Translations under genes and position numbers: made by a program
Shown here: positions 9,496 through 51,744 of the stretch, in pieces
Layout: each line of letters begins with the position of its first letter
Numbering within the stretch: position 1 is the stretch's first letter
Notes under the pieces: model-generated
Databases searched by the model: none
Told to the model about the DNA's origin: nothing
What the model saw: only the letters and a program-made list of their open reading frames with translations
NCBI GenBank assembly: GCA_964016885.1
Contig: OZ024742.1
Location: forward strand, 48,794,001 to 48,858,000
Reading direction: 5' to 3'
DNA length: 64,000 nucleotides
Source: Eledone cirrhosa
Lineage: Eukaryota

Positions 9496-9748
9496 CCGCG
9501 GGGAAAGAACGCTTTCCAGACACGTATGTAGCAAGTGATAAAATCTCAAAAGGCGGTGGGAGAAATTACCACGTGATACACCGCTCAAGAAAGGGAACTG
9601 AATCCCTTGTAGCAAGTGAAAAATATCTCAGAAGGCGGAGGGAGAAATTAATACATGATAGAGAGTTTAGAGGCGGGTAGTAAGGTGAAGTGAAAACGAT
9701 TATAGTATTTGCTAAAAGCAGTTACTATACTTTCGTATATATATATAT

Positions 9749-9945
9749 AACGAAGGGGGTGTGGTAAGGAACCAGATGGACCATAACGCACCAGAGTACT
9801 CAATACTTAGAGTAGTAGAGTGGGTAATAGGAAAAAGTTTAACCCCGAGGGCAGAGCTCAAACCGTTTCGACGGCTATTTCTGGACTCCAGAAATAGTCG
9901 TCGAAATGGCTTGAGCTCTGCCGTCGGAGTTAAACTTTTTCCTAT
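9749..9945. mobile_element. Family F1 hairpin mini-element (palindrome 9827-9945 plus ~78-bp unique tail), TA-flanked
   Basis: Arms ataggaaaaag..gtttcgacggctatttctgga / tccagaaatagtcgtcgaaa..ctttttcctat; related copies at 21573, 21829, 40443, 45142. Confidence 0.9.
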
Positions 9946-10439
9946 ATATATATATATATATATATAAATATATATATATATAGTGATAATTAGAGTTCTC
10001 GAATAAGGTTCAAAACGATAGGAGTTCAAAAACTATAGAAACCATAAATGCAAAGTCTATAGACTTTTAAATTTGCAAAATTCAGCTTCTGTACACCACA
10101 TATTAGGGCGACCGTTCGAAGACGATGAACCCCTTAGCGCAAATTCCCAAAGGGTATATGAAATAGTGAATAGAAAATACAAAACTGATTTCATATCCGT
10201 GAAGGAACAGATACAAATAAATAAGCACTTGAGTAATTTGACATCACAGCTCCACATACAAACGGCACCCATCAATTCCATGGATGTAAAGTAATATCAG
10301 CTGAAAACGAAATAAACGCATATTCAGCTAGTGGTCCTGGCAAAGTCACTACACTTCCTCTTCCAGAACTTCACAACTAACTCAACCCAGGCCACTCTGT
10401 CCACTTTCCCGTCCTTAAGGTTACTTCACTTGATTTTCC

Positions 10440-11799: not shown

Positions 11800-14495
11800 A
11801 GTTGAAGTCATGCTGGAGCAGCCAGCAGGAGAGCTAAAATGGATATTACTTTGCTTAGCATGTCTCTACTTGGGGTTTAAACATTGGTGGAGTTGAGAAA
11901 TATTGGGGCGTGATATATATGTGCATTTCCCCGGTTACTCAATTAAGTCCCTACTGTGGAGAGACACAGGGCAACCAAGAAAAGGTATTTCTATTCGCTT
12001 CACTTCTGAAAATTTGACATTGAAGTGGATAAATTAAAGAAAATAAGTCAGGGCTGTTCTACCAGAAAATGAGTCATAAGTGGTGGATATCTATATTGTC
12101 ACCAGGTATGATGTTTACCTGCCGGACGAATAAGCAACCCCGGGCCAACAGGGTGAACTATTAAGGGATATAGAGCAATGAGTGGCAACGTTAGCTCACA
12201 AGAACACTGTCGCAACACAGTGATTCAGCTATAGTGAGGCAAGTAAAGGCCACTCTTGACAAAGCCTAGTATAGATAAGCGTGTCTGAGAAAACTATCAG
12301 ATTGCTAACTAGCGCAAATTAAGACCACCAAAACCACAATATGGTGAGCCGTAACAAAATTAACCATATCGCATCTTCCTTTGCGCGCGATAAGAAAGGA
12401 CGCATTCAGTACAAAATTAGAGGTGCCTGTTCAAAAAATATATTACAGTCTCCATTTCATGTGGTAAAAACTGGCGATGGGTATGTGAAATGTCCTTGGA
12501 AGAGTGGGATGGGCGCACGAATATTGCGCATCACCAGACACCAAAGAGAATTCGAAAGGGGGCAAACCGTAAGAACTGAAACATGGAACATCACAACCCT
12601 TACATGTAAGGAGCAGGAACTAGTGGAGGACGTTAGATACTACCGTTTATATATAGTAGAGGATGGAGACTCCATTAATCAGTAGTGGCACCAGAAATGA
12701 CTGTATAGGCAGTTGAGGATACAAACTCCTGGCTGTCAGAATGTGTTATGGACTGGACCCAATTACGAAGCAGGATTTGGCTACTGAAACTTTGGCTCAA
12801 AGATAGGTCCCTGTGGGTTATGCAAGTTTATGTATCAAACAACGAGTCTGAATACATATCCTTTCTTGATGCAATCACTGCAGTGTTAGAACTAGTAAAG
12901 ATTGAGTCTTATATTCTAATGGGGCTTGCAATGCTTATGTTGGCATTGATCACCTCCCATGAAATTTAGTGCTTCGAAGAAACGGCGAACCGGAACGGAA
13001 TAGGAATGAAGAGGCCTTATTAGACTTCCCTTCTCTTAACAGATTCTCTACTGAGAACAACTCCTTCCAGTACATCCATTAATTTACATGGTGTATGGGG
13101 CAGCAGGGACACAGATCAATAAACGATCTAGTAATTGTTTCTGAACTCTTTGATTCTGTGCTGGATGTTCGTGTTAAATATGTCGCTGAGCTGTCAACTG
13201 ATCTGCAATTTGAAATTAGATAACGCCAAAGAAGCCCAGAAACGTGGCAGATCCAGTTCGACCTACAGGAAAAAGTGTGAAGCGGTGGATAAGGAAGTAA
13301 GGAACAGTAATGCGGATACAATTGCATCCAAATTCATAGAACTCCCTGAGCAAACCGAGGACGCAGAAACCGAGGGGGAAATATTCAGTTTGATAGTTTC
13401 TACTTCAGCTGTTACATGCTGAGGGTGAAAACGTCTGGGTGTGGCGCCGAGTAGAAGGATGATCCCTTGGTCCAATTAAGAAGTCAAAGACGACATTCAA
13501 CCAAAGAATAGACTTATAGAGTCTACTTTGGGAATATGTCCTCCTGCCTGCACTTGCTGTACAAACAGGTGGACTACGTCACAACATAGACGGTAAAGCA
13601 TCCAAAGTTAAGATATTGGAGGACTTTCGGTTTAAGTTGGAATGCGAATTCCGACATTGGCTGACTGGCCGACATTGTAACAAGAAGTCCTCCTCGATAA
13701 CTGCTATTGGGGAGCATCTGGAGTTCTCTATTCAAAGAGGTGCATCCTTGCATGATGGAGAGAATACGATGTTGATATCCTAAATCTGATTAGAAGTGCT
13801 TCTGATGTACAGGAAGTGCATCTGGTAGCGATGACTACTCACTCGGAGGCCGAGGTCATTGGAGACATGAAAGAGTTGAAATGTGACAAGGCCACTGGGG
13901 AGGATAAAATCTAGCCTGAGTTAATAAAACCTTACATAGAGAAGGTTAATATACGGCTGACCCATATGTGCGGGGTGGTCTGAATCTCTGGAAATGCATC
14001 TAAGCAATGGCAATCGGGAATGATAATTACCAACTATAGAGGGATCCTCTTGTTATGCCTCCTCTGTAAAGTCTATGCTATGTATCTGGCAAAGAGATGT
14101 AGAGAGATTGTCGTGTCCACGCTAGCCGATGGACAGTGTGGATTTCGCTCCGGACTCAGCACAACCGACCAAATATTCATACTGTCTTTGATAAATCGTA
14201 GAAGTATTACCACGAGGTGTGTTCTTGTTTTTTTAAACCTCGAAACTCATACGGCTGTATTCCATGGGACCTGCTTTAGAAGGTTCTGCAGGAGTGTGGA
14301 TCGATGGTCAGACACATGTTGGCCTGATGTCTTTAAACAATTTTATGTGGAAGTCTGACTTAGTCAAGTGTGCATACTGTCACTTCTCCTGTTCATAATA
14401 CTCTTGAACAGGATTAACATGCGCAGCGAGGTTGGAAAAGTTACCACGACAAGCGGGTGTAGGATGGGTCGACTGCAATTTTCAGATGACATGGA
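11800..14495 (+). mobile_element. Degenerate RTE-clade LINE (5' UTR, APE, partial RT)
   Basis: TWNITTL (APE N-terminus, ~12580); NYRGILLL..QCGFRSGLSTTDQIFIL RT motifs (14020-14358); many stops and frameshifts. Confidence 0.85.
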
Positions 14496-18584: not shown

Positions 18585-19010
<426 letters not shown>

Positions 19011-21378: not shown

Positions 21379-21572
21379 CATATGCAAACGTATATACATA
21401 GACATACATATGTACATGTGTATATACATATTTAAACATTTTTGGATGGCCGTTGACTCTTATCAGTTCTTCCGCCCTTATACATACATACATACATATA
21501 TATATATATACATATACATGTGTATTCGTATATATACTACTCACACACGCGTGCATATATATATATATATAT

Positions 21573-21785
21573 AACGAAGGAAATGTGGTAAGGAACCAGG
21601 TGGACCATAACGCACCAAAGTACTCAATACTTGAGGTAGTAGAGTGGGTAATAGGAACCAGTAAGACCCCGACAGCTGAGCTCAAGCCGTTTCGACGGCT
21701 AATTCTGGACTAAAAAAAAAAATTTTTTTAGTCCAGAATTAGCCGTCGAAACGGCTTGAGCTCAGCTGTCGGGGTCTTACTGGTT

Positions 21786-21790
<5 letters not shown>
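21573..21790. mobile_element. Family F1 hairpin mini-element (near-perfect 140-bp palindrome 21651-21790)
   Basis: ataggaaccagtaagacc..gtttcgacggctaattctggact(a)n(t)n agtccagaattagccgtcgaaac..ggttcctat. Confidence 0.92.
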
Positions 21791-21828
<38 letters not shown>

Positions 21829-21830
<2 letters not shown>

Positions 21831-21960
21831 CGAAGGAATTGTGGTAAGGAACCAGATGGACCATAACGCACCAGAGTACTCAATACTTAGGGTATTAGAG
21901 TGGGTAATAGAAAAAGTATGACCCCGATGGCAAAGCTAAAGCCGTTTCGACGGCTATTTC
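21829..21960. mobile_element. Family F1 half copy fused to a Penelope fragment
   Basis: Same tail and left arm, ending at gacggctatttc. Confidence 0.85.
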
Positions 21961-22466
21961 TATATTTCTATAAAAAAGCCGCCAGCAGGGACCTGTTCGT
22001 ACATTTCAGATCGGCCCTCCCACTCGGTGCCAAGTTCGGATACATAAGGAACGAACTGGCACGTATCCGGAACAAATATATATATCTACGCGGTCAGCTA
22101 ACCAAAATACACTCCACCAGACATGACAACTGCTGCAGACTAGCCAACTGCCCCATCAACGACACAGACCTATGCCACCAGGCTTACGTCGTATACAGAC
22201 TAGAGTGTGACAAATGCAACAACTTCTACGTACGTAGCACCACCAGACCACTCCACATAAGAATAAAAAAACACCTCAATACTAACACTTCCTCATTTAA
22301 GAAACACCTAGTTAAATGCAAAAATATCGACAAAACCATAACTGTTAGGATAGAAACTAAGGAAAGAAACCTCAGCAATCTTAGAATTAAGGAAGCACTA
22401 ATTATAGACAAAACACAACCACCAATTAATAATAGATTAGAACTCAACACCCAATTTATAACTTGA
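21961..22466 (+). pseudogene. Penelope-like element C-terminus (thumb remnant plus GIY-YIG endonuclease)
   Basis: FYKKAASRDLFVHFRSALPL..CRLANCP..VVYRLECDKCNNFYVRSTTRPLHIRIKKH..LRIKEALII..PPINNRLE. Confidence 0.88.
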
Positions 22467-22884
22467 TGGAGCTCCTAGCCCCATATTTACACACACCCCA
22501 CACGCACACACGCACCCACACACACACACACGATTACACCTCCACTTATTCTCTCTCACACATACACACACTAAACCTGTTCTAACACGAGATAACATCT
22601 ATCCCCCACATTTACGTATAGACATATCTTCTCACACTCACACACACACACTCACGTACTTACACCTTTATGCATTCTCCCACACACTTAAACAGGCATG
22701 TACAAAAAAACAAAAAAAACAAAAAAACAAAAAAAAAACATAAACAAACCCCTCTTAAAGGGAGACTACTCTTTATCCACCTAATCTTAACTCTTTGAAA
22801 TTAGAGATAGAACAGATACTCTATACCATTTCCTGTCAGCATGACTTGGAAAGCTTTTTAGAACACTGGTTTGACAACTTTATT

Positions 22885-22942
22885 CCCTCTGAAGAAGAGA
22901 TATTATCTCGAAAATTTAGGACACTTAAATAAATCTAAGGTA
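22885..22942 (+). ncRNA. HHR in the Penelope 3' pLTR region
   Basis: CUGAAGA a-gagau-auu-aucuc GAAA auuuag..cuaagg UA, ~420 nt after the EN stop codon. Confidence 0.65.
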
Positions 22943-24299
22943 AAAGACAAATTGTCAACAATATCTTTTGCATTTGCATTCTTTATTCTATGTCCATACC
23001 TGCATTGTTTTGGCTTTATTATACATATACAAACGTTTATATATATTTATATATATATATATATGGGGGGGGGGTCTCTGTGTATGTGTATATGTGTGGG
23101 TTTGTATAATAGTATATGCATATGCGTATATACATATGTGGATGCATATATTATTTTTCTCACTTTCTCATTAGCTTTATGGCCGGAATGAATGGACTGT
23201 AGAGAATCCCTGTGACCAGTGGGTTTTACCAAGCTCATATTTGCCTGAGAAACACCATGTGTCCCTGGGGCACTCCAATACATCAACAAGGTGTTAATGG
23301 TTCAATAAATGATTAAATTTATGCAATAACTGAAATAACTGTTTCTAAAACATAGAAATTGTCCAACAGAAGTGACGTGGGTCTAAACAAGAAGGACAAC
23401 TGCAGCATCACAAACAATATCAACGATGACATGTCGACTTGCTTGAAATAATAACAGAATTTCTTCTCAAACCACACACCATAGGCTCATAAAAGGTCAT
23501 GGTACATTAATTAATTTACTCCTATTTTCTCCTAAAAAAGATTTTCTCAGATCTGCTTCATCAATATTGACCTAGGGTTAAACATCAACAACTTAGCAAC
23601 AATAGTCTTACAACATATCTGTACGGCAATCATTTTGTCTGGCGCCATATTGATTCTGACATCTAAGTTTGCCACAAGGCCAAACATTATGAGCAAAGAC
23701 AGTGTTGATTAAATCGACTCCAGTACTTCACCGGGCAATTTGTGAGAATCTTCATAATAAAATGTTTCTAAGGTCACTTAGAGGGCAATATGTTTTATTC
23801 ATGCTTCATAAAATAGCTAAAGCAGAAAAGTAATAAATAAAATATGAGAGGAAAACACGCACAAACATAATCGCATAGATTTGTATAAACACACACAAAC
23901 ACAAACATACGCGCGCGCTTGTGTATGTGTGTGCGTGTATATATTTATGCAGATACGGCATACGGAAATTGCGTCTATATGACAAAAACTCATTCAAACG
24001 TTTGAAATCAAGAGACTACAAACGAACGAAACAGTTTTAGTCCCGAGGTACCTCATCTACTAATGTAATGCGTACCTTATTTAACTTCTTTCTCGTCGGA
24101 AATAATTTATATATATAAATTGAACATACATTTTTAATATAGAACTAACTTCTGGAATTTGCTGTTGAAACGGAAAAAATCTTAGCCGACGTTAACTAAC
24201 TCTATACTCTCTATATATAAATATGGGTAGATTATCGGTGGGTATCGGGAGGTAACTACAATTTAAAAAGGTATGATATATATATATATATAATATATA

Positions 24300-24396
<97 letters not shown>

Positions 24397-24595
24397 TATG
24401 TACACGTACATACATATATGTATACAGACGTAAAGTAGTATGTATATATATACATACATGCACACATATATATATGTACGTATAGACCTACCGAACATTT
24501 ATTATAATGCCCGGTGTGTTTGTAAACAAACATCCCTTATTAAGCCGTAGTGTCCAGCAACCATCGTTGCTCGTTTATTCAACACTGACAAAGGA

Positions 24596-24638
24596 ACGCT
24601 GTACTAGTTTCAAGCTTATTAGCTATCGTCAGCAACGT
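24596..24638 (-). ncRNA. Minimal type I HHR
   Basis: acguug CUGACGA uagcu-aaua-agcuu GAAA CUAG UA cagcgu. Confidence 0.85.
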
Positions 24639-25121
24639 ATACCTTCCTGCCAGATTGTTGAACGTATATACTTACTTTATGTATATTAACGGCTGAGTAG
24701 CCCAATTTGCATATCGAGTGGGTTAATCGGCCGGGTGCACCGAAAACGATAAACGAAAAAAATGAAACGAAATTTCATTTCCCACTCTTAGTACGGCTTA
24801 ATACGGGATGTTTGTTTACAAACAGACCGGCATTATAATAAATGTTCAGTAGGTCCATACATACATATATATATGTGTGCATGTATGTATATATATATAC
24901 ATACTACTGTACGTCTGTATACATATATGTATGTACGTGTACATACTTATATTTAAGTAACAGCCGTACTAAGAGTGGGAAATGAAATTTCGTTTCATTT
25001 TTTCCAATTATCGTTTTCGGTGCACTCAGCCGATTAACCCACTCGATATGCAAATTGGGCTACTCAGCCGTTAATATGCATAAGGTAAGTATATACGTTC
25101 AACTATCTGGCAGGAAGGTCT

Positions 25122-25164
25122 ACGTTGCTGACGATAGCTAATAAGCTTGAAACTAGTACAGCGT
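25122..25164 (+). ncRNA. Minimal type I HHR
   Basis: acguug CUGACGA uagcu-aaua-agcuu GAAA CUAG UA cagcgu; palindromic ACUAGU stem III. Confidence 0.85.
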
Positions 25165-25170
25165 TCCTTT

Positions 25171-26900
25171 ACTGGATTGATTATACCCATGGAAATTGAG
25201 CCACCTTGTTCTGGCTCCTACGACGTCGTTGTTTAAGATGAGGTGCAGAGTCCAATTGGCAGCATTGATTGTGTGGACCTACCCCACAGGGCATACATAG
25301 TCATCAAGGTATGGTGTCGGTTCCGATGAACCCACGCCGACACCCTGACTGACGTCCGCATCCCCGTATGTCTTTAGTCTTTGCAATCCGGTGGTGTTCA
25401 TGCGGAGAGAGTTCACCTTCTCTGGTGTCTGCTAGTCATGATAATCTCCGATTTCAAGTTGACTATGTCATTCTTTAATCTCACTATCTCCATGGCCTCG
25501 GACAGGCATAGCATGCACATCCTCTCGCCTGCCGAATATGCACTGGCATGTTGAACGATAAGCCAGTTGAGATCATACGGGGTACCGGTGTCCTTCAAGT
25601 CCCATATTAGGTCCACCAGCCTAGTGGAATGTCTCTTGCTCCTGTCCTTGAAAGAGTTTGTGTGATTGTACATCCTCTATTTAAAGTTCGTGGATGCTGC
25701 GCCGATCTAGGTGCGCTTGGTGTTGTGCGTGTTAACCACACATTATTATACTACGTCTTTCGTTAGGCATCTTCCCTGCAGAGGGCATTGTGTGCCTACA
25801 CTGCAGTTGCATGATCGTTCGTTATGTTGCTTATTCATTACGCTGGATCCTGGTCTTATTACGGCGTTCCCCCGATTCTCTGGGCGTTGTTCTGTCGGTG
25901 CCGTGGGCTCCTTTTCGTCATTCAGTTCCACCTGGTAGTCGAGTATTGTGTCTTCCGCGGGTGTGCCGGCCACTGTGGGGACCGGACCATAGTTGATAAC
26001 CCTGTCGCCAAGTGCCCCCCCCCCGGATCGTCGGCCACCTGCCGTAGTTGGCGATTGAGCTACCCCAACTTCACCGCATTGGTTTTGGTCATATAGTCTG
26101 CCATGTTACGTGCGGTAGAGAAGGTAAACTTCACTCTGTGGCGTTGAATATCCTGTGGTATCTGTTCGAGGGCGGGAAGCACTCGTCCAACGCTCTGAAG
26201 AAGAGGCATACATGCTTCGAATACGGCGCGTTAAACCACGTCTTAGACCTTGTCCTATTCCTTCGTCTGTGTGTAGTAGTATTAATGTGTGTTGGGTCAG
26301 ATGCCCATCCCGTGTTGTGTCTACCCGTTAGTTCATTCCCTATGTTACTGCTATCTATATATCTACCATGTGCGTCTGGATTCGCCGTTCACTTATTAAA
26401 TATTATGTTCTATATTGTCGGCCCGGTTGGTAGTCCCGTTAATGCTATCTGGTGTTATTGTCGGGGCTATGTCTATGCTATTGATCCGGGTGCTACCTGG
26501 TTCAACGTCCAGAGCTGCATTTATTCTGTCTCTAGTTCCAGTTGCCGCGTCGTGTATTGTGTCTGTGTTGAGATACTGTCTGCGTGTACTATGTGGTCTA
26601 CCATCCGCGTGTAACTTCGTCTGTCTTAGTGTCAGTCTTGTGTCATTGCGATAATCTATATTGCTAGGCCTATTCTTAGATGCGTGTTCCGGGGTGTTCT
26701 GCCTACCTATGGAAATACTATTGCTATCCTCTATTGCGCATTCCTCGCCGCTGGGCCTTTCCCTGTCTGGGGTGTACAGTATGGCTTCTGTGTAAACGGC
26801 CCTGCGCAGTGCCTCATTATAATAATCGGTGTGCTGTTTAAAGACGTCTGCGTTAGCTGACAGTGTGAATACGCATTTGGATACCCCACTAGACGTATCT
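25171..26900 (-). mobile_element. Penelope-like element 3' portion (thumb, linker, Cys motif, GIY-YIG, 3' UTR), degenerate
   Basis: YYNEALRRAVY; RTRSKTWFNAPYSKHV; CNC..CPLQGRCLTKDVV; YNHTNSFK..STRL..IWDLKD..LNWLIV..AY..CMLCLSE..NLKSEI. Confidence 0.88.
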
Positions 26901-29199: not shown

Positions 29200-30530
29200 T
29201 GTATAGAGCGTTTTTGTCCGCTACATCAAATATTCCAGAATTTGTGAGGAGATGCTCTTTATGAAAACTCTCATCAACACTACAGGAGAACAAGTGTGCA
29301 ACGCTGTCACCGGCTTTTTAAAGACAAATGATATTAGCATGGATAATATGATCTCCATTTTCACAGATGGTGCGCCGTCAATGATCGGCAAAAGAAAAGG
29401 ATTTGTGTGCAGTTTAATTGAAGAAATAAGCGTGTTTACTATTCATTGTGTTTTCCATCGTGAAAATTTGGTTGCAAAAAATATTGGTAACCGTGATCTT
29501 ATAGCCAGACTTGAAACGGTTGTTTCATCCGTCAACAAAATAAGAAGACGAGCCCTTCAAGACAGGATTTTCTGGGATGCTTGTCGTGACGAAAATTTTC
29601 ATCGGCTGGTTTATTCCACAGACGTACGTTAGCTTTCAATCGGTAACTGTCTCATGAGATGTGTCGTACTGTTTGACAATGTTTTGGAATTTATGCAGAA
29701 CAGAGACACTGTTCTGAGGAATTCACTTATTGATAACAAGATTGTTATATTGTACTTGGAAGAAATATTTCGGAAACTCAATGAACTGAATTTATCCATG
29801 CAAAACCAGGATATGAACATCGTACGTGCTAAACAAGTTATAAAGGCATTCATGAACAAATTGGTGATTTGGAAAATGAAAGCCATGATGCATGACTTCT
29901 GTCATTTTTCTAGTTTGGATGGCAAAGAAATTGATTGTGAGTTACACACAATTATTGTGGATCATTTGTCTATCAAACTCGTTTTGAGGATCTTTTGCAG
30001 TTGAGCATACCACCTGTTGTCGATTTACTTCATACCATGACAATGGAGGATGTCATGAATCAACCTGAATGCGTCCAGATTGAGCTGTGCGAGGCCATTG
30101 CTGACGAGCGCTTGATTCAGGCCTCTGAGAAAAATTGGATCAAAGCGTGGGTGCAAAGCTCGATCAAATATCAAGCCTTGTATGAAAAGGTGGAACCATT
30201 TATAATTAATCTACCAACGTCCAATTTGGGGGAGAAGGGCTTTTCGCTTTTACTTTATTCATTCACAAAATACGAAGGAAATTGCACTTGAACGATAATC
30301 CAGAAATGAGGCTCCGTCTGAGTGACCTACAACCACGGATTTCTGCTCTCGTGACTAATAAACAGACACAAGGCTCTCACTAAAAACGTGTGCCCGTAGG
30401 ACTCTTTGATCATTACGAATACATTTTGTTTGTTGAATTAATGTCCTAAGTTTTGAATGCTCTTGGGGGGTCCATAGCGAAAAAGGATTCTGCTTGATGA
30501 TCCATAGTGAAAAAAGGTTGGGAAGCCCTG
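29200..30530 (+). mobile_element. hAT Buster/Charlie-type DNA transposon, 3' half with disrupted transposase and right TIR
   Basis: TDGAPSMIGKRKGF..IHCVFHRENL..DVR(W)LS; PTSNLGEKGFS; terminus aaaaaggttgggaagccctg followed by ctcTAcgg (NNNTANNN target); left end not seen. Confidence 0.88.
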
Positions 30531-39937: not shown

Positions 39938-40365
39938 TAAACAAACAGCCCGAATTAAGCCGTACAGTGTTCGGCAACCATCGTTGGCCTTTTGTTCAAC
40001 ACTGACAAAGGAACGATGAACTAGTTTCAAGCTTATTAGCTATCGTCAAGCTTGTTAGCTATATGCTGACGATAGCTAATAAGCTTGAAACTAGTTCATC
40101 GTTCTTTTGTCAGTGTTGAACAAAAGGGCAACGATGGTTGCCGAACACTGTACGGCTTAATTCGGGCTGTTTGTTTACAAAGAAACCGAACATTATAATA
40201 AATGTTCGGTAAACCCATACGTACATATATATATATATGTGCATGTATGTATATATATACATGCTACTGTACGTCTGTATACATATATGTATGTACGTAT
40301 ACATACTTATATTTAAGTATCAGCCGTACTAAGAGTGAGAAATGAAATTTCATTTCATTCTTTTC
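39938..40365. mobile_element. Family F2 copy: 240-bp palindrome (39938-40177) centred just 5' of the HHR, then A-B segments
   Basis: CUGACGA at 40066, GAAA 40087, CUAG UU; order on plus strand is HHR-C-A-B. Confidence 0.88.
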
Positions 40366-40390
40366 TATATATATATATATATAGATATCT

Positions 40391-40442
<52 letters not shown>

Positions 40443-40444
<2 letters not shown>

Positions 40445-40521
40445 CGAAGGAAATGTGGTAAGGAACCAGGTGGACCATAACGCACCAAAGTACTCAATAC
40501 TTAGGGTAGTAGAGTGGGTAA
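40443..40521. mobile_element. Family F1 tail-only copy
   Basis: acgaaggaaatgtggtaaggaaccagg..gtactcaatac..gagtgggtaata between TA tracts. Confidence 0.88.
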
Positions 40522-40551
40522 TATATATATATAAATACATAAATACATAAA

Positions 40552-45767: not shown

Positions 45768-46369
45768 GTCTCGAAAATTGTGACAACAGTTGTGTTTATT
45801 TGAAAATCATAGAGATAAATTGAAACACAAAAATTGTTTTTAAACAGCCAAATGCCGTAATTGACAGCATGCTAAATACTTTAGGACGAAATCCATAGCC
45901 AGTGATTGGGATTTAAGTGACAGGTAGATGAATTAGAAATGATAAGAAGAAAGAATGCGGTACAAATGAAGATTATTTTTACAATAAGAGTCTAGATTAA
46001 AGTTATTAAAGATACACAAACGGTTTTGCACGAATTAATTGAGAAAACCACAATTATTTTTTAAATGCATGTTCGTGCTCCAGAAAATAAAGATTTCAGC
46101 AGGTATGATGTGTGACAAGCTAAACCGAACACACGAACAGATCAGAGAAGGATATAAAGCGTGCCATGTCAAGCATTTCGCTTGACATGGTATATGAAAC
46201 AGGCATATGAAAATAAAACTATTAATAAAATAACAAATAACAATTGATATCCCCAATAGGGGGGTGGCGTTACACAGGGGTTGTACACAGCCCGAAATAA
46301 TGTATATCCCTCATCTGCAGGAGCACCAAGAGTGAGTACTCCCTCCTCTCTTCCTCTTTTTCCTCAACC

Positions 46370-49300
46370 TACAGGCTTATATAGAGGGAAGGCCGATCCA
46401 CTCGGGCCATCTTTGCCACGTTCACCCACATTTTATAAAATTTGCTGGGGTACAGCACCTCTCTCTTCGTCCTGATTCTTCTTCCAAAATGATATTTGAA
46501 AAACGTATCAGTTGTTCGCCGGAGAGAAAGGTGTCTGACCTCAACCCTTTTAACCTCGTCCACCATATAACATCTTTCACCATAGCCATAACACAGGAAA
46601 ACCGCCTCTCCCTGTTTTTGAATGAGGGTGGCGGTTTGATCATGACAATGGACTCGGTGGTCAACTGGATTGGTCCCACCCGCGAAAATAGTCGTTCTAC
46701 ATAGCCCCACAGGTCGGTAACGACCGGGCAGTGTACAAATGCGTACGCGACAGTTTCCTCGTCGCGCACGCATCTCGGACAGATCTTTTTCGAAGGGTCT
46801 CTGCCTGGCGCCCGTGTCTGTAGAGCTTGTCTCGAACTGGTAGAGCTCCTCGGTAGCACTGCCAGGCCAGGGACATTTGGAAGTTGTCCATTGGTCCCGG
46901 GCGGAAGGTCCTACCGAACAGACTGGCAAGTTCGTCCTCTTCTACGCCTAGAGTTTCTTGAGCCCGTCGTCGCACTTGCTGCGGACTAACCCTCTATAGA
47001 ATGTCGAAGTGGAGTCTCCACTGATCGCCGGGTCCGTTTGCCAGACGAATGTGAGCACCTGAGCACATTCGATGTGCAAGTCGCCCATTTTTCTCGGTCT
47101 TTGCTTGACCCAGGACTGCAGTTCGGTCAGCGAAACGAGTGGTGGGAAGGCTCGCCTCACGAACGGCGCCCACACCGGTTGTCTGGTGAGGAATACGTGG
47201 AGGTGCCGCAGTCTGAGCGCGTGTTTGCGCATCGTCAGCCACGGCATCCCCAGCCCTCCGTTTGAAGGGTGTTGGCAGCAGATGGATCTTCTCACCAAAG
47301 GAGCCCGTTTCTTCCAAAGGAATTTGAAGAGCGCGCGCTCCATTTTGGTGAGCATTTTGGCTGGACAAGGCACGAAGGTCAAGCGGTAGTAGATGACGGA
47401 CGCTATAAAATTGTTCGCCACCTTCGCTCGACCTTTCAAGGATAGTTTGCACTCGGCCCACTTCTGGGTGAGCGCAAACACCTTGGCCGTTACCTCGTTC
47501 CAGTTTTTCTCCACATGGAGGTCCGGATCAGCTTTACCTGTCCTTCCTTCCAGCGTCGGACGACGCCATCGGAGGGCATCGGTTTGCCTCTCGACGTTCA
47601 GAGTTGCAAACGGACCGATTTGTGCCGGTTCAGATTTGAAAGGTGCTCGACACCATTACTGTTACGTCGTTGGCGTAGGCCGACGCCGGTTTTAGCAGTC
47701 CTGGTTCCAAAGAGATGTCCTTCAATAGCTCCAACTTCCGCAGTAGTGGCTCGAGAGTCAGAACGTACAGAAGTGAGGAGAGAGGGCATCCCTGTCGGAT
47801 GGATCACGTGATATGGAACGGCTCCGAGAGGTAACCGTTCACCTTGACCCTTGAGCAGAAGATGCTGCTGTACATTGCAGCAATCCAGCCCCTGAACAAG
47901 CGTTCGAAGCCTGCCGCCTCGAGCACCGCATCCGGTAACGATGGTCAACCCTATCGAAAGCCTTAGACTGATCCAAGTTGATCAGGGGCCCACCGAAGCC
48001 GTGTTTACACCCTACCCTCTCTATGATGTATCGCATGAGGTGGAGGTTGTCGTGTATGGACCTCATCGGGATTACGCATGTCAGCTCTTCTCCCACCAGG
48101 TTTTCGATGACAAGCGCCAGCCTCTTTGCCAACACTTCGGCCAAAATCTGTAACTCTGTATGGGCCGGAAGTTGCCTATGTCATCCCCCTTATTCTCGTC
48201 CTTCCTGACTAACGTGATTACGCCCTTGTTCTCAGAACTGGGAATTCTCTCGTTCTGCTGCCAGTTACAGTAGACCGCTTCCAGAAGACCGGAGAACAGA
48301 TCCGGCATTGCTACGTAAAATTAGTAGGGTAGACCATCGAGAACTGGAGATTTGTGTTTGCGGCATTGGCTCAGCGCGTCCCCTATCTCAGCGGCCGAAA
48401 TCGGCCTTTCGCAGAACTTCGCCTCGCTGTCCGAGAGTCGCGGTAGACCGTCGAGGTATTGACCGAAATCCCTAGCCTCTCCCGGCGCCCCGCCTTGTCT
48501 GAACAATTGAGCAAAGTGCCGCTGAAAGGCGGCGCACATTTGCTTCGGCTCACGTATCACGCATCCGTCTTGGTCCTTCAAAGACCGAATCGTAGACTTG
48601 TTGCCACTTTTCGCCTCCGTCACTCGGGCCCAGCTAACAGCTTTGGCTCCCTCGTTTCCCAGAGCACGTATTTTGCTTCTGACAATGCAGCCTTCATGCT
48701 TTGCGTCGAAGAACTGGTCTAAGGCCGTTCTCGTCGCTAGCACGCTAGCTACGTTGCCGCTCCTAAGTGCCTCTTCTACTTTATCTACCAGTTCCTTTTC
48801 GGTCTTATTTCTATCTAACACTAATTATTTACTAAAACCTATCGAGTCTAATATAACTGCCCTCTTGAGAGAGTACAACCATCTGTTGTTGACAATGGCC
48901 CCTGTCAAGTGCTGCTTAACTAAAGTGCTAATCCGTCTACTGTAGGCTTTGCACGTCGGTAACGACAAGTTCAGCTTCCAGTAGCCGGGACCCTGTCTAT
49001 GGGTTTTGTCAAGGTCGACTAAGCAGGTCACTAATTTGTGATCTGAATAGGCAACCATGAACATTTGTGGACAGCTTAACATTCCCTATCCTTCTTTCTA
49101 ACTAGAACCCTATCCAGGTACGATCTAGATCTTCCGCTGAGATTATTCCACGTCCACAGTGGCACAGTCGGAAAATCTAGTCGATATTTATCGGCCAGAT
49201 CAAATCGGCCGATTAACTGTTTGAGGCTGTTACACCCCCTCTATCGGGACATGCCTCCATATAGTTCCAACGTGCATCTAGGATTCCATTCCAGTCCCCA

Positions 49301-49716
49301 GCTAACAACAAGGGGCGGGACGTTCCCAGAAAAGTCTCTAGACGTTTGAAGAAGTCTGGCCGCGGTGTGCCGGATGGGGCATATGCGGCCACCAGCCTGA
49401 AGGCTCCACCTTCACTACCGTCAACGTCTAGGACCACCAGTCGACCCTCCGGGTCCCGATATACGGTCTGTGTTATGAGGTCTATGTGTTTACTCAGCAA
49501 AACGTCAACCCCACCCCCACCTCCCGGCTGACAGAGAGATGCGTAGATCTCAAAGTCGTCGAAGATGGGGGCCAGTTGTCGCTCGCTGTGGATCATGGAC
49601 TCGCAAATGGCTACTACATCCATACTGTGCGACCTGAGGCCGTTTAAGAGTTTGCCCTGTTTCCAGGGCATCCCCTGGCCGCGTACATTCACACATCCAA
49701 CCCTTATATTGGTCAT
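46370..49716 (-). pseudogene. Tx1-type ORF2 (APE endonuclease, reverse transcriptase, zinc motif), frameshifted, RT partly deleted
   Basis: GCVNVRG..VAICE; AAYAP; GDWNG; SDH; GPGYWKLN; KSPVLDGLP; NFRPI; LDQSKAFDRVDH; CPRC..ETVAYAFVHC. Confidence 0.9.
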
Positions 49717-49794
49717 GTTGGTGCTGAAAAGTTAAAAGAAGAGGAAAAGAAATCACTCACCTCTTCGTCTCCTGGGGACTAGGCTGCACAATTT

Positions 49795-51467
49795 TCATGG
49801 GGGTGTTGGAGGGGTTGTTTGGTGGGGTGGTGGTCTCTGGCGGTGTGGGGACGGAGATGTTTGGTGGGGAGGGGGCGTCAGGTGGGGTGGGGTGCCTGGG
49901 GTGAGAGTGTCTGGTGTGGGGGTGGGGAAATATTTCAAAAGGACGCGGTTATAGGGTTTGACGCAGGGGTTACCTACGTCGTTAGGACATTTTTCTTTTA
50001 ACTGTTTATGTGTATCCATGGAGATCCTAATCAATTTAAGATTAGGATTATCCGAAGAGTGTGTAATAGTGTTCACTTCGGTCTCCACCGAAGGGTTTTT
50101 ATATATGGTGTCTGTTAAAGTGTTATTGTTAGTATTTATGTAGGTGTAACATTTTTGTTGTGTCGTGTTGCTTTTTTTCTGTGGTTCTTGTGTCTTGTGT
50201 GTGTTTACGTTTTGTTGTAGGTGTTTTGTTTTCAGGAGGGTGTGTTTTTGTTTGTGCTGTTTGCGTCGCTTGTATTGGTGTTTGTGTGTTTGTTGCATTT
50301 TTGTTTGTGTTATGTATTTTCTTTTTTCGTTTTACTGGTCGGAAAGGCTCTCCCTCATCCTCACTGGGTGACGATGATGAGGCCTCATCCGTGTTGTTGA
50401 GAAAGGGTACATTTTGAGGAGCTGTTATGTGCGTGGGTGTTTCTGGATTTGTTTTAGTTGGGGAGGGGTTGGGTGGGACTGTGTTTGCAGTTTGGTTTGT
50501 TTTTGTGTGTTGTTGTGTGGTGGTGGTGGTGGTGGTTGTGTTGTTGTGTTGGGTGTCGGCTGTAGTGCCTTTTTTAATGCAGTTCATTGAGGAGAGGAAG
50601 GCTTCAGGTGTCCACTGCTTAAACAGTGGTAACATGAAGGCCGCCTACCCTCAACAGAAATGTTTATGTAGGAATTTCCATCCAGAGGCACACGTTGTGG
50701 TATTCTAGCTATCCGTTCAGGTCTCATTTGGACCAGAACTTCTAAGCTTGTACCGTTGAATATGTCCCTGGAGGACTTTCCTACCGAAATTACTGTATCT
50801 TCATCAAAATTGATGAAACCAGCTAATATCCACCAGATGTTTACATTTGGTGTTATATTTGTTACTTTTATTTTTTGGGTCCTGTTTCCCATATATGTGG
50901 GGAAAAGGGTGTAGAGGGGGGACACAATTGGCGACACAGAATATTTATGTGCCGTCAGTTGGTCTTTCTTTATTATTGATAAACTCCCGCCGGGGTTAAC
51001 TTTGCATTTCATCCTTACGGGGTCGATAAAATAAAGTACCAGTAATGTACTGGGTATTTGCTGGCCTTCTGCCTAAAGTAGAAACAATTATTATTGATAA
51101 ACTCCCGAAGAGTTTTTCCTTCTGTATGAAGGTAATGTCCTTCATGGAGTTTCTTAGAACCAGCCTACTTTCGTTTTGAGTTAATTGAGCTGGTTTCCTG
51201 GTGGTATTTGAGATTGTCCTAAAAACTATGGTTTTCAGGACAGTGTCTGTACGCAATTCTTGGGGAGAAGTGATGCTAAAAGCACCATTCTCCCCAAAAG
51301 TTATATATTGCTTGGCATCTCTTAGCAATTCTCCGGCATTAGAGATGTCAATCTGTGTATATAGTTCTGTCTTTTGGACAGTGTGTGCAAAACAAACCTT
51401 TTTTTCCTTGTTGGTGTTGTTGTCATTAATGTTGCTGCCGTTGGTGTTGTTGTTGTCATTGTTGTCG

Positions 51468-51498
<31 letters not shown>

Positions 51499-51744
51499 CA
51501 ATTGATTGATATGTGGTTGAGGAATTCATTTGTGAAGTTGTGTTTTCGTTCATAGCATTGTTGTTATTGCTGTTGCTGGCGCCGCTCGTTGTGTTGTTTT
51601 GGTTTGATTCCATGTCAACGTCAAGTTGTCGGTCAGCAGGTGGAGAAAATCTTTGACATCTGCTACTATGACAGTGGCAGGGGGAAGATGTAAGCATATC
51701 TTCCCCTTTCCTCCTTCGAATGTTGGTGAAGAAGCATCAGCCAT
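49795..51744 (-). pseudogene. Tx1-type ORF1 (zinc knuckle, low-complexity termini)
   Basis: ISVEGRRPSCYHCLSSGHLKP; N/T/P-rich ends; interrupted by a SINE. Confidence 0.75.
50990..51087 (+). mobile_element. 5'-truncated tRNA-SINE with 20-bp TSD inside Tx1 ORF1
   Basis: ttattattgataaactcccg at 50970-50989 and 51088-51107. Confidence 0.92.

Follow-up and report, generated by a model that had tools for sequence, protein, structure and literature searches.

We found that F2, a non-coding hammerhead repeat family of Eledone cirrhosa, has the insertion footprint of a PLE, and the genomic data suggest that it is copied in trans by a PLE reverse transcriptase-endonuclease, most likely (with a probability of about 0.65) from a circular monomer RNA. 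The window that we analyzed is a whole stretch of 64,000 nucleotides (contig OZ024742.1, positions 48,794,001 to 48,858,000 of the forward strand) and it holds two F2 insertions. An earlier note on this DNA described a hammerhead unit of ~415 nt in three circular permutations and proposed a circular or tandem RNA template. A repeating template is supported by the genome-wide data, far better than by the window itself; the three segment orders alone do not show a circle.

The hammerhead unit is real, and its length is 420 nt rather than ~415 nt. This length comes from an alignment of 34 full monomers (range 413–430 nt), a best-match sample diverging by 1.8% from the consensus, which we number c1–c420. 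The longest reading frame is 61 codons even in a trimer of the unit, which bears out the observation that the segments carry no ORF, and there is no reverse transcriptase or GIY-YIG ORF; F2 is therefore not an autonomous PLE. An exact 30-nt stretch of the hammerhead is present in 13,302 copies in the 3.0-Gb genome (at least this many F2 hammerheads, as only exact 30-mer matches count) and its reversed control in 0. The A-B unit junction is present in 10,878 exact copies and its control also in 0, so that chance is excluded. The youngest lineage comprises 631 exact units that are almost undiverged. The tandem 420-nt unit, the GC content of 37.6% and the absence of a protein fit the non-LTR retrozymes, an already known class to which F2 belongs, and we saw no terminal direct repeats in the anatomy of the copies. 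Of the 30 bins into which the unit was divided, 24 are covered by contigs from a second organism, and the family may reach a related species.

In the window, all three segment orders are present where the earlier note had placed them, in the following arrangement:

24276–24389, no strand: (TA)n tract into which the minus-strand arm runs at its 3' end; genome-wide, both fixed 3' ends run into (TA)n
24390–24798, minus strand: left arm, c1–c411, ending at the upstream fixed 3' end (c411); 96.4% identity to the consensus
24596–24638, minus strand: minimal type I hammerhead, predicted to cut between 24602 and 24601
24792–24798, no strand: point where the two arms meet head-to-head, within 7 nt of microhomology that correspond to both strands of the long-range RNA helix c1–7 / c250–256
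24792–25170, plus strand: right arm, which starts at c250, crosses the unit junction and stops at c209; neither of the normal 3' ends is present
25082–25090, plus strand: donor-like 9-mer AAG/GTAAGT, the derived state of younger subfamilies
25122–25164, plus strand: second hammerhead copy, predicted to cut after 25158
25171–26887, minus strand: decayed, 5'-truncated Hydra-type PLE ORF with a CxCX5C linker and a GIY-YIG-like end, a neighbor that lies outside F2
39938–40048, minus strand: inverted left arm (c168–c276) of the second insertion
40064–40372, plus strand: right arm of the second insertion, from c165 through the junction to c50, then (TA)n

The hammerhead cores begin at 24632 (minus strand), 25128 (plus strand) and 40066 (plus strand). 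In the first insertion, the left and right arms (24390–25170) have a rare 3-nt change at c310–312 in common, and the strand switch does fall on an internal inverted motif, the 7 nt at 24792–24798. This motif is a conserved RNA helix that was used once as microhomology, and the sequence of the inversion junction in the window occurs 3 times genome-wide. The plus arm halts at 25170 (c209) against the truncated old PLE, and its missing normal 3' end is likely the result of a later deletion. In the second insertion, the copy at 40066 also carries an inverted left arm that was absent from the earlier description; its right arm is of an older subfamily (90% identity) and ends at the downstream fixed 3' end, c50. 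There are also remnants of other elements in the window. On the minus strand, hammerhead-core motifs of other repeat families are found at 18878, 7507 and 1913, and the 18878 type is also found at another locus (L150). Translations point to decayed LINE-like elements, which retain pieces of an endonuclease and of a reverse transcriptase, and to a transposase-like remnant (46200–51700, minus strand; 29200–30000 and 12300–14400, plus strand).

When we extended the analysis to the genome, we found that F2 copies end at only two 3' positions, c411 and c50 of the next unit, which are 59 nt apart. Both ends are inserted into (TA)n, and exact end-plus-(TA)n matches number 2,671 for the c50 end and 1,256 for the c411 end. 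From 140 loci that were fetched by these 3' ends in chromosome order we recovered 128 arms, or 125 after 3 near-duplicates were dropped. The 5' ends of the 125 arms are scattered over the unit and no 20-nt bin stands out; the median arm length is 406 nt, with more than one unit in 59 arms and more than two units in 12. At the 5' junctions of the 128 arms we found an inverted F2 arm in 75, other sequence in 43, F2 in the same direction in 7 and another PLE in 3, and there was no recurrent upstream flank among the arms that are not joined to F2. Where the inverted arms abut, the junctions have 2.2 nt of microhomology (0.37 nt expected) and 47 of 49 are distinct. With random 5' ends, two 3' ends and inversion, any F2 copy reads as some rotation of the unit. 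Thus, the segment orders are real, and they are not special circularly permuted forms but follow from random 5' truncation, the two fixed 3' ends and inversion.

To see how the two ends are distributed between arms, we considered all distinct insertions with two complete arms among the fetched loci (94 insertions). One c411 end and one c50 end are found in 91 of the 94, when 47 would be expected if the ends were independent (p = 7e-24). This implies that a single event produces both arms, with a different start site assigned to each DNA end, and we infer a dimeric enzyme behind this pairing. The known PLE footprint consists of 5' truncation, partial tandems, an inverted 5' copy and an optional tail (PMC8557442, PMC3846280), and the tail is described as often being at one end only (PMC8557442). 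In F2, the tandems are partial and truncated on the 5' side, a 5' copy is inverted, there are two fixed 3' ends, and the insertions lie in (TA)n, as those of Hydra and Naiad do; autonomous PLEs of the same genome display that anatomy too, with 3' ends 40 nt apart in the family N1 and 164 nt apart in the family H3a. F2 is therefore a non-autonomous PLE-type retrozyme.

Among 10 reference pieces from six autonomous PLE families of this genome (N1, N2, H1, H2, H3a and H3b), we found no homology to F2 (best E-value 0.13); as no autonomous homologous family is among them, a helper is inferred. In five insertions (L072, L279, L388, L331 and L469), F2 is fused to a Hydra-type PLE with no (TA)n spacer and with normal outer ends. 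No join of F2 to N1 was found in the 417 loci scanned, where most N1 loci had been fetched for N1 itself. The joins to Hydra-type elements, with none to N1, make a Hydra-clade PLE the likely helper. One such family, the recently active H3a (L499–L510; for example G000:C1:56973000-56982900), has a 4,172-nt unit and an intact 832-aa frame in 12 fetched copies that are 99.3–99.9% identical to the first. Pfam did not recognize the 832-aa frame, and the apparent placement of H3a in the Hydra clade rests on its CxCX5C linker. H3a also has a hammerhead-like motif with a changed core base. N1 has a 905-aa frame with RVT_1 and GIY-YIG; it is a young family of 20,743 first-look candidates with frames up to 905 aa and a 40-nt tail, and its 3' part, with a GIY-YIG and cysteine linker, lies in the window at 22002–23064 (plus strand). 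The window also contains the terminal repeat of a Hydra-type PLE, H2 (21555–21961, 9736–9982 and 40430–40523; ORF in L389 and L392), in which the 3' UTR is 1.1 kb long, the two 3' ends are separated by about 89 nt and a hammerhead-like motif has a long helix II.

The hammerhead of F2 occupies c161–c203 with a predicted cut after c197, and it has the minimal type I form, with a 6-bp helix I, a 4-bp helix II and a palindromic 2-bp helix III. Except for point changes, the 34 aligned monomers retain its core and helices. In Rfam, there was no hammerhead among the matches listed for the window (the best 150 of 173) and no match on 24950–25200; the microRNA matches in the window proved to be simple-repeat artefacts. 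Folded as a circle, the unit reaches –140.6 kcal/mol (z = –7.9, 60 shuffles), with z = –5.8 for the antisense strand, and the same fold is kept by an older sister family of about 425 nt that is 69% identical to F2. In an alignment of 22 F2 and sister copies, pairing is kept in 94.7% of cells, and both partners have changed in 20 of 55 pairs; these are mostly single changes between the two families, in a structure that was picked from consensus folds. None of 500 shuffles reached the observed covariation, and slid controls paired in 32–39% of cells. The two-sided changes cover helix I (3 of 6 pairs), helix II and the center of the helix III palindrome, and the inverted motif at the strand switch corresponds to a long-range helix, c1–8 / c250–257, in which 3 of 8 pairs covary. 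Taken together, these data suggest that the RNA fold of F2 is under selection. The helix III palindrome is described as necessary for dimer cleavage (PMC4209133). Helix I extends to about 25 bp, and in the predicted structure this would keep the two ends of a monomer in contact after the cut. The older sister retrozyme family is represented by the loci L418–L447 (2,365 first-look candidates); its hammerhead differs from that of F2, yet covaries.

A splice donor just upstream of the hammerhead had also been proposed, as a reminder of the introns in PLE pLTRs. The 9-mer is present at 25082–25090, 32 nt before helix I of the hammerhead and not ~40 nt before the hammerhead as a whole. An intron of the PLE pLTR type is not supported: the donor is derived, having arisen in younger subfamilies by one substitution and an 8-nt deletion, and is missing from older F2 and from the sister family, where the region is a small palindromic hairpin, the ancestral state. 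Across 319 sampled insertions, 36% have a non-donor base. One predicted spliced junction has 0 genomic copies, as would also be the case if the intron were retained.

The alternatives to a circular template differ in where F2 comes from and in what is copied. Because F2 abuts a PLE ORF at 25170/25171, it could have been the pseudo-LTR of that element or the product of a local duplication. None of 28 other copies of that PLE runs on into F2 and they have their own 3' UTR instead; F2 is younger (96–99% identity, as compared to 77–89%) and has more than 10,000 junctions without an ORF, which leaves this origin scarcely credible. We also considered the adjacent ORF as a Naiad and rejected this, as its C-terminal endonuclease and CxCX5C linker are those described for Hydra (PMC8557442). 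Nor do the copies show one fixed linear order with an A-B junction explained by local duplication, given 10,878 A-B junctions and the anatomy above. In another model, the template is a linear monomer cut by the hammerhead, on which the enzyme jumps repeatedly from the 5' end to a 3' end. The cut site is read through in 108 of 112 passes; the remaining 4, which fit this model, stop within 5 nt of it. The 5' ends at c195–199 in the arm set (4, as compared to 1.4 expected; p = 0.05) and, in a separate analysis, 3 ends at c199 hinted at a pile-up, but neither the arm set as a whole nor the genome-wide patterns have an excess. A first cut-site pattern gave 27 genome-wide matches, of which only ~15 look like true junctions by eye, and junction patterns gave 85 matches at the cut site and 151 in the next downstream window; the patterns have different anchors and were partly checked, so that there is no excess but the ratio is inexact. 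In each of the 34 aligned monomers, the sequence continues seamlessly across the cut site. Read-through of the cut site thus excludes a cut linear monomer as the main template, and we regard that model as largely refuted and its probability as very small. It is also improbable, if a little less so, that insertions of about one unit grew later by unequal crossing-over and gene conversion, as minisatellites do. DNA-level duplication and mosaic arrays do exist (L219, an exact dimer duplication; L386 and L384, patchwork arrays; and the region of L370), and the median bulk arm is about one unit. However, the longest arms are in the youngest, almost undiverged insertions, where 28 arms average 3.8 units (up to 20.6) as compared to 1.6 units for 67 comparable bulk arms; both opposite arms are long and share variants, and arm lengths pass smoothly through one unit. 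One region, G000:C1:253172000-253187400, contains very young arrays with 20 and 7 units head-to-head and a further arm of 9 units, which have a period of 424 rather than 422. The two- to threefold greater arm length of the youngest insertions relative to older ones may reflect unit loss with age or a more processive current helper.

The remaining alternative, in which the same element and PLE helper work from a linear multimer that stays uncut and is made by transcription of long homogeneous arrays, is a real competitor that we consider possible but clearly less probable than a circle. Copying would start at the two sites of any unit, and the hammerhead would persist for its part in regulation or in binding protein. 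Copying past the cut site fits this model equally well; arrays of 16–20 near-identical units exist and could be a source of linear multimers; and in vitro, the PAc PLE is reported to initiate internally, to dispense with hammerhead cleavage and to use uncut RNA as its main substrate (PMC11167929). What favors the circle is how variants are shared. In a sample of 611 units in 319 insertions, common variants are shared by 85% within an insertion (both in tandem and across the inversion) and by 20% between insertions, and in insertions of the youngest lineage variant and period are mostly uniform. C102T is present in 33 of 33 units of four insertions, one with 16 and 7 units. A119T, on the youngest haplotype, matches 8 sites genome-wide; they belong to a single insertion, where they fall on both arms, and each of the 9 units of that insertion has A294G as well. 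Since a mutation arises in one unit, it must pass through a monomer bottleneck and be multiplied anew to become fixed in every unit of the two arms, and a circle offers such a route; a linear multimer does not readily account for such successive fixations, and this assembly contains no array from which the A119T haplotype could have come, although an array with A119T and A294G may be missing from it. Not every variant is uniform, and G59C occurs in a single arm, in 6 of its 7 units. Among rare variants, 15 are fixed in all units (7 of these are the lineage marker A92T), 221 are single, 3 are patchy and 8 are repeated in one arm; 6, in four insertions, mirror each other at the same index of the two arms, as a linear template would predict, and 5 are shared at different indices, the control pattern. 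This test, with 47 informative insertions of 70, is small and did not pick up the two largest fixed cases (C102T and A119T); it shows no excess of the linear-template signature (6 as compared to 5). The compensatory changes that preserve the catalytic helices and the dimer palindrome also argue against an uncut template. In sum, a circle is the likeliest template of F2 given the sequence evidence.

In the mechanism that we propose for a circular template, a tandem F2 copy would be transcribed, and two hammerheads would pair through the palindromic helix III and release monomers. The extended helix I of ~25 bp would keep the monomer ends close for ligation, and the single hammerhead left in the circle would not be active. 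Next, both (TA)n strands would be cut by a PLE protein that is probably dimeric and probably belongs to the Hydra clade, and each DNA end would be primed at one of the two internal start sites. Each reverse transcriptase would circle the template until it falls off at random, and the two cDNA 5' ends would be joined through microhomology. Later, DNA-level duplication, conversion and unit loss would alter older arrays.

F2 resembles the animal non-LTR retrozymes that have been described, which have tandem non-coding units of 150–450 bp, a type I hammerhead and low GC, and for which circle intermediates and PLE helpers have been proposed (PMC7229834; 10.64898/2026.07.22.740005). Its hammerhead differs in having the minimal PLE-type form, and the two fixed 3' ends, head-to-head arms and haplotype fixation appear to go beyond what those accounts describe. 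Circles have been shown for animal retrozymes (Cervera & de la Peña, 2020; PMC7229834), and cleavage and circles are reported for some retrozyme species, whereas F2 is known here from DNA; for Xenopus, 8 of 9 retrozyme dimers are reported not to cleave (Li, Clavereau & Pollet, 2026; 10.64898/2026.07.22.740005), which counts against a circular template. TE homology is given for 24 of 57 Xenopus families, whereas none of the PLEs compared has a pseudo-LTR homologous to F2. PLEs of the Hydra clade and others (Craig et al., 2021, PMC8557442; Arkhipova et al., 2013, PMC3846280) share with F2 5' truncation, partial tandems and an inverted 5' copy, as well as a tail that is optional and often confined to one end, (TA)n targets and a hammerhead in the repeat. 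F2 is unlike them in its lack of an ORF, its tail of 59 nt rather than the 30–40 nt described, its arms of up to 20 units and its lack of a supported intron. For Poseidon PAc of the green anole, the in vitro work of Frangieh et al. (2024, PMC11167929) describes two internal start sites that define the tail, cutting and extension of both DNA strands, AT-rich targets and a predicted dimer; that account gives no start-site difference between strands and proposes a linear multi-copy mRNA, whereas F2 has strict pairing of one site per arm (91/94) and bears signs of having passed through a monomer bottleneck. MRC1 and similar Chlamys elements are likewise non-autonomous PLEs with multicopy head-to-tail insertions, but they are described as similar to autonomous families at the 3' end and generally without canonical hammerheads (PMC8557442), whereas F2 has a hammerhead and no identified parent. 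In the main texts of openly available papers, we found no description of a cephalopod retrozyme or of a one-end-per-arm count, and the words ribozyme and retrozyme are absent from the main text of a 2026 octopus repeat annotation (PMC13282606).

How PLEs make tandem and inverted insertions, and whether hammerhead circles are templates, is debated. The circle-template model for retrozymes and PLEs has been a proposal since 2014 (PMC4209133, PMC7229834), the only in vitro PLE study favors uncut linear RNA (PMC11167929), and in 2026 it was argued that non-LTR retrozymes derive from PLEs and are non-autonomous (10.64898/2026.07.22.740005). On balance, the genomic patterns favor by a narrow measure the fuller picture in which F2 is still active and its young insertions record rolling-circle reverse transcription by a PLE, with a dimer that primes two DNA ends at two sites and makes up to 20 rounds per arm. 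If this is true, F2 would provide genomic proof of the circle-template model for retrozymes and PLEs, and it would add a new rule, one start site per DNA end, that was not seen in the in vitro PLE system. F2 suits such a test since it is small and very abundant, with a lineage of near-zero divergence in a genome that has an intact, recently active PLE; a 420-nt RNA and one protein would test the circle model directly.
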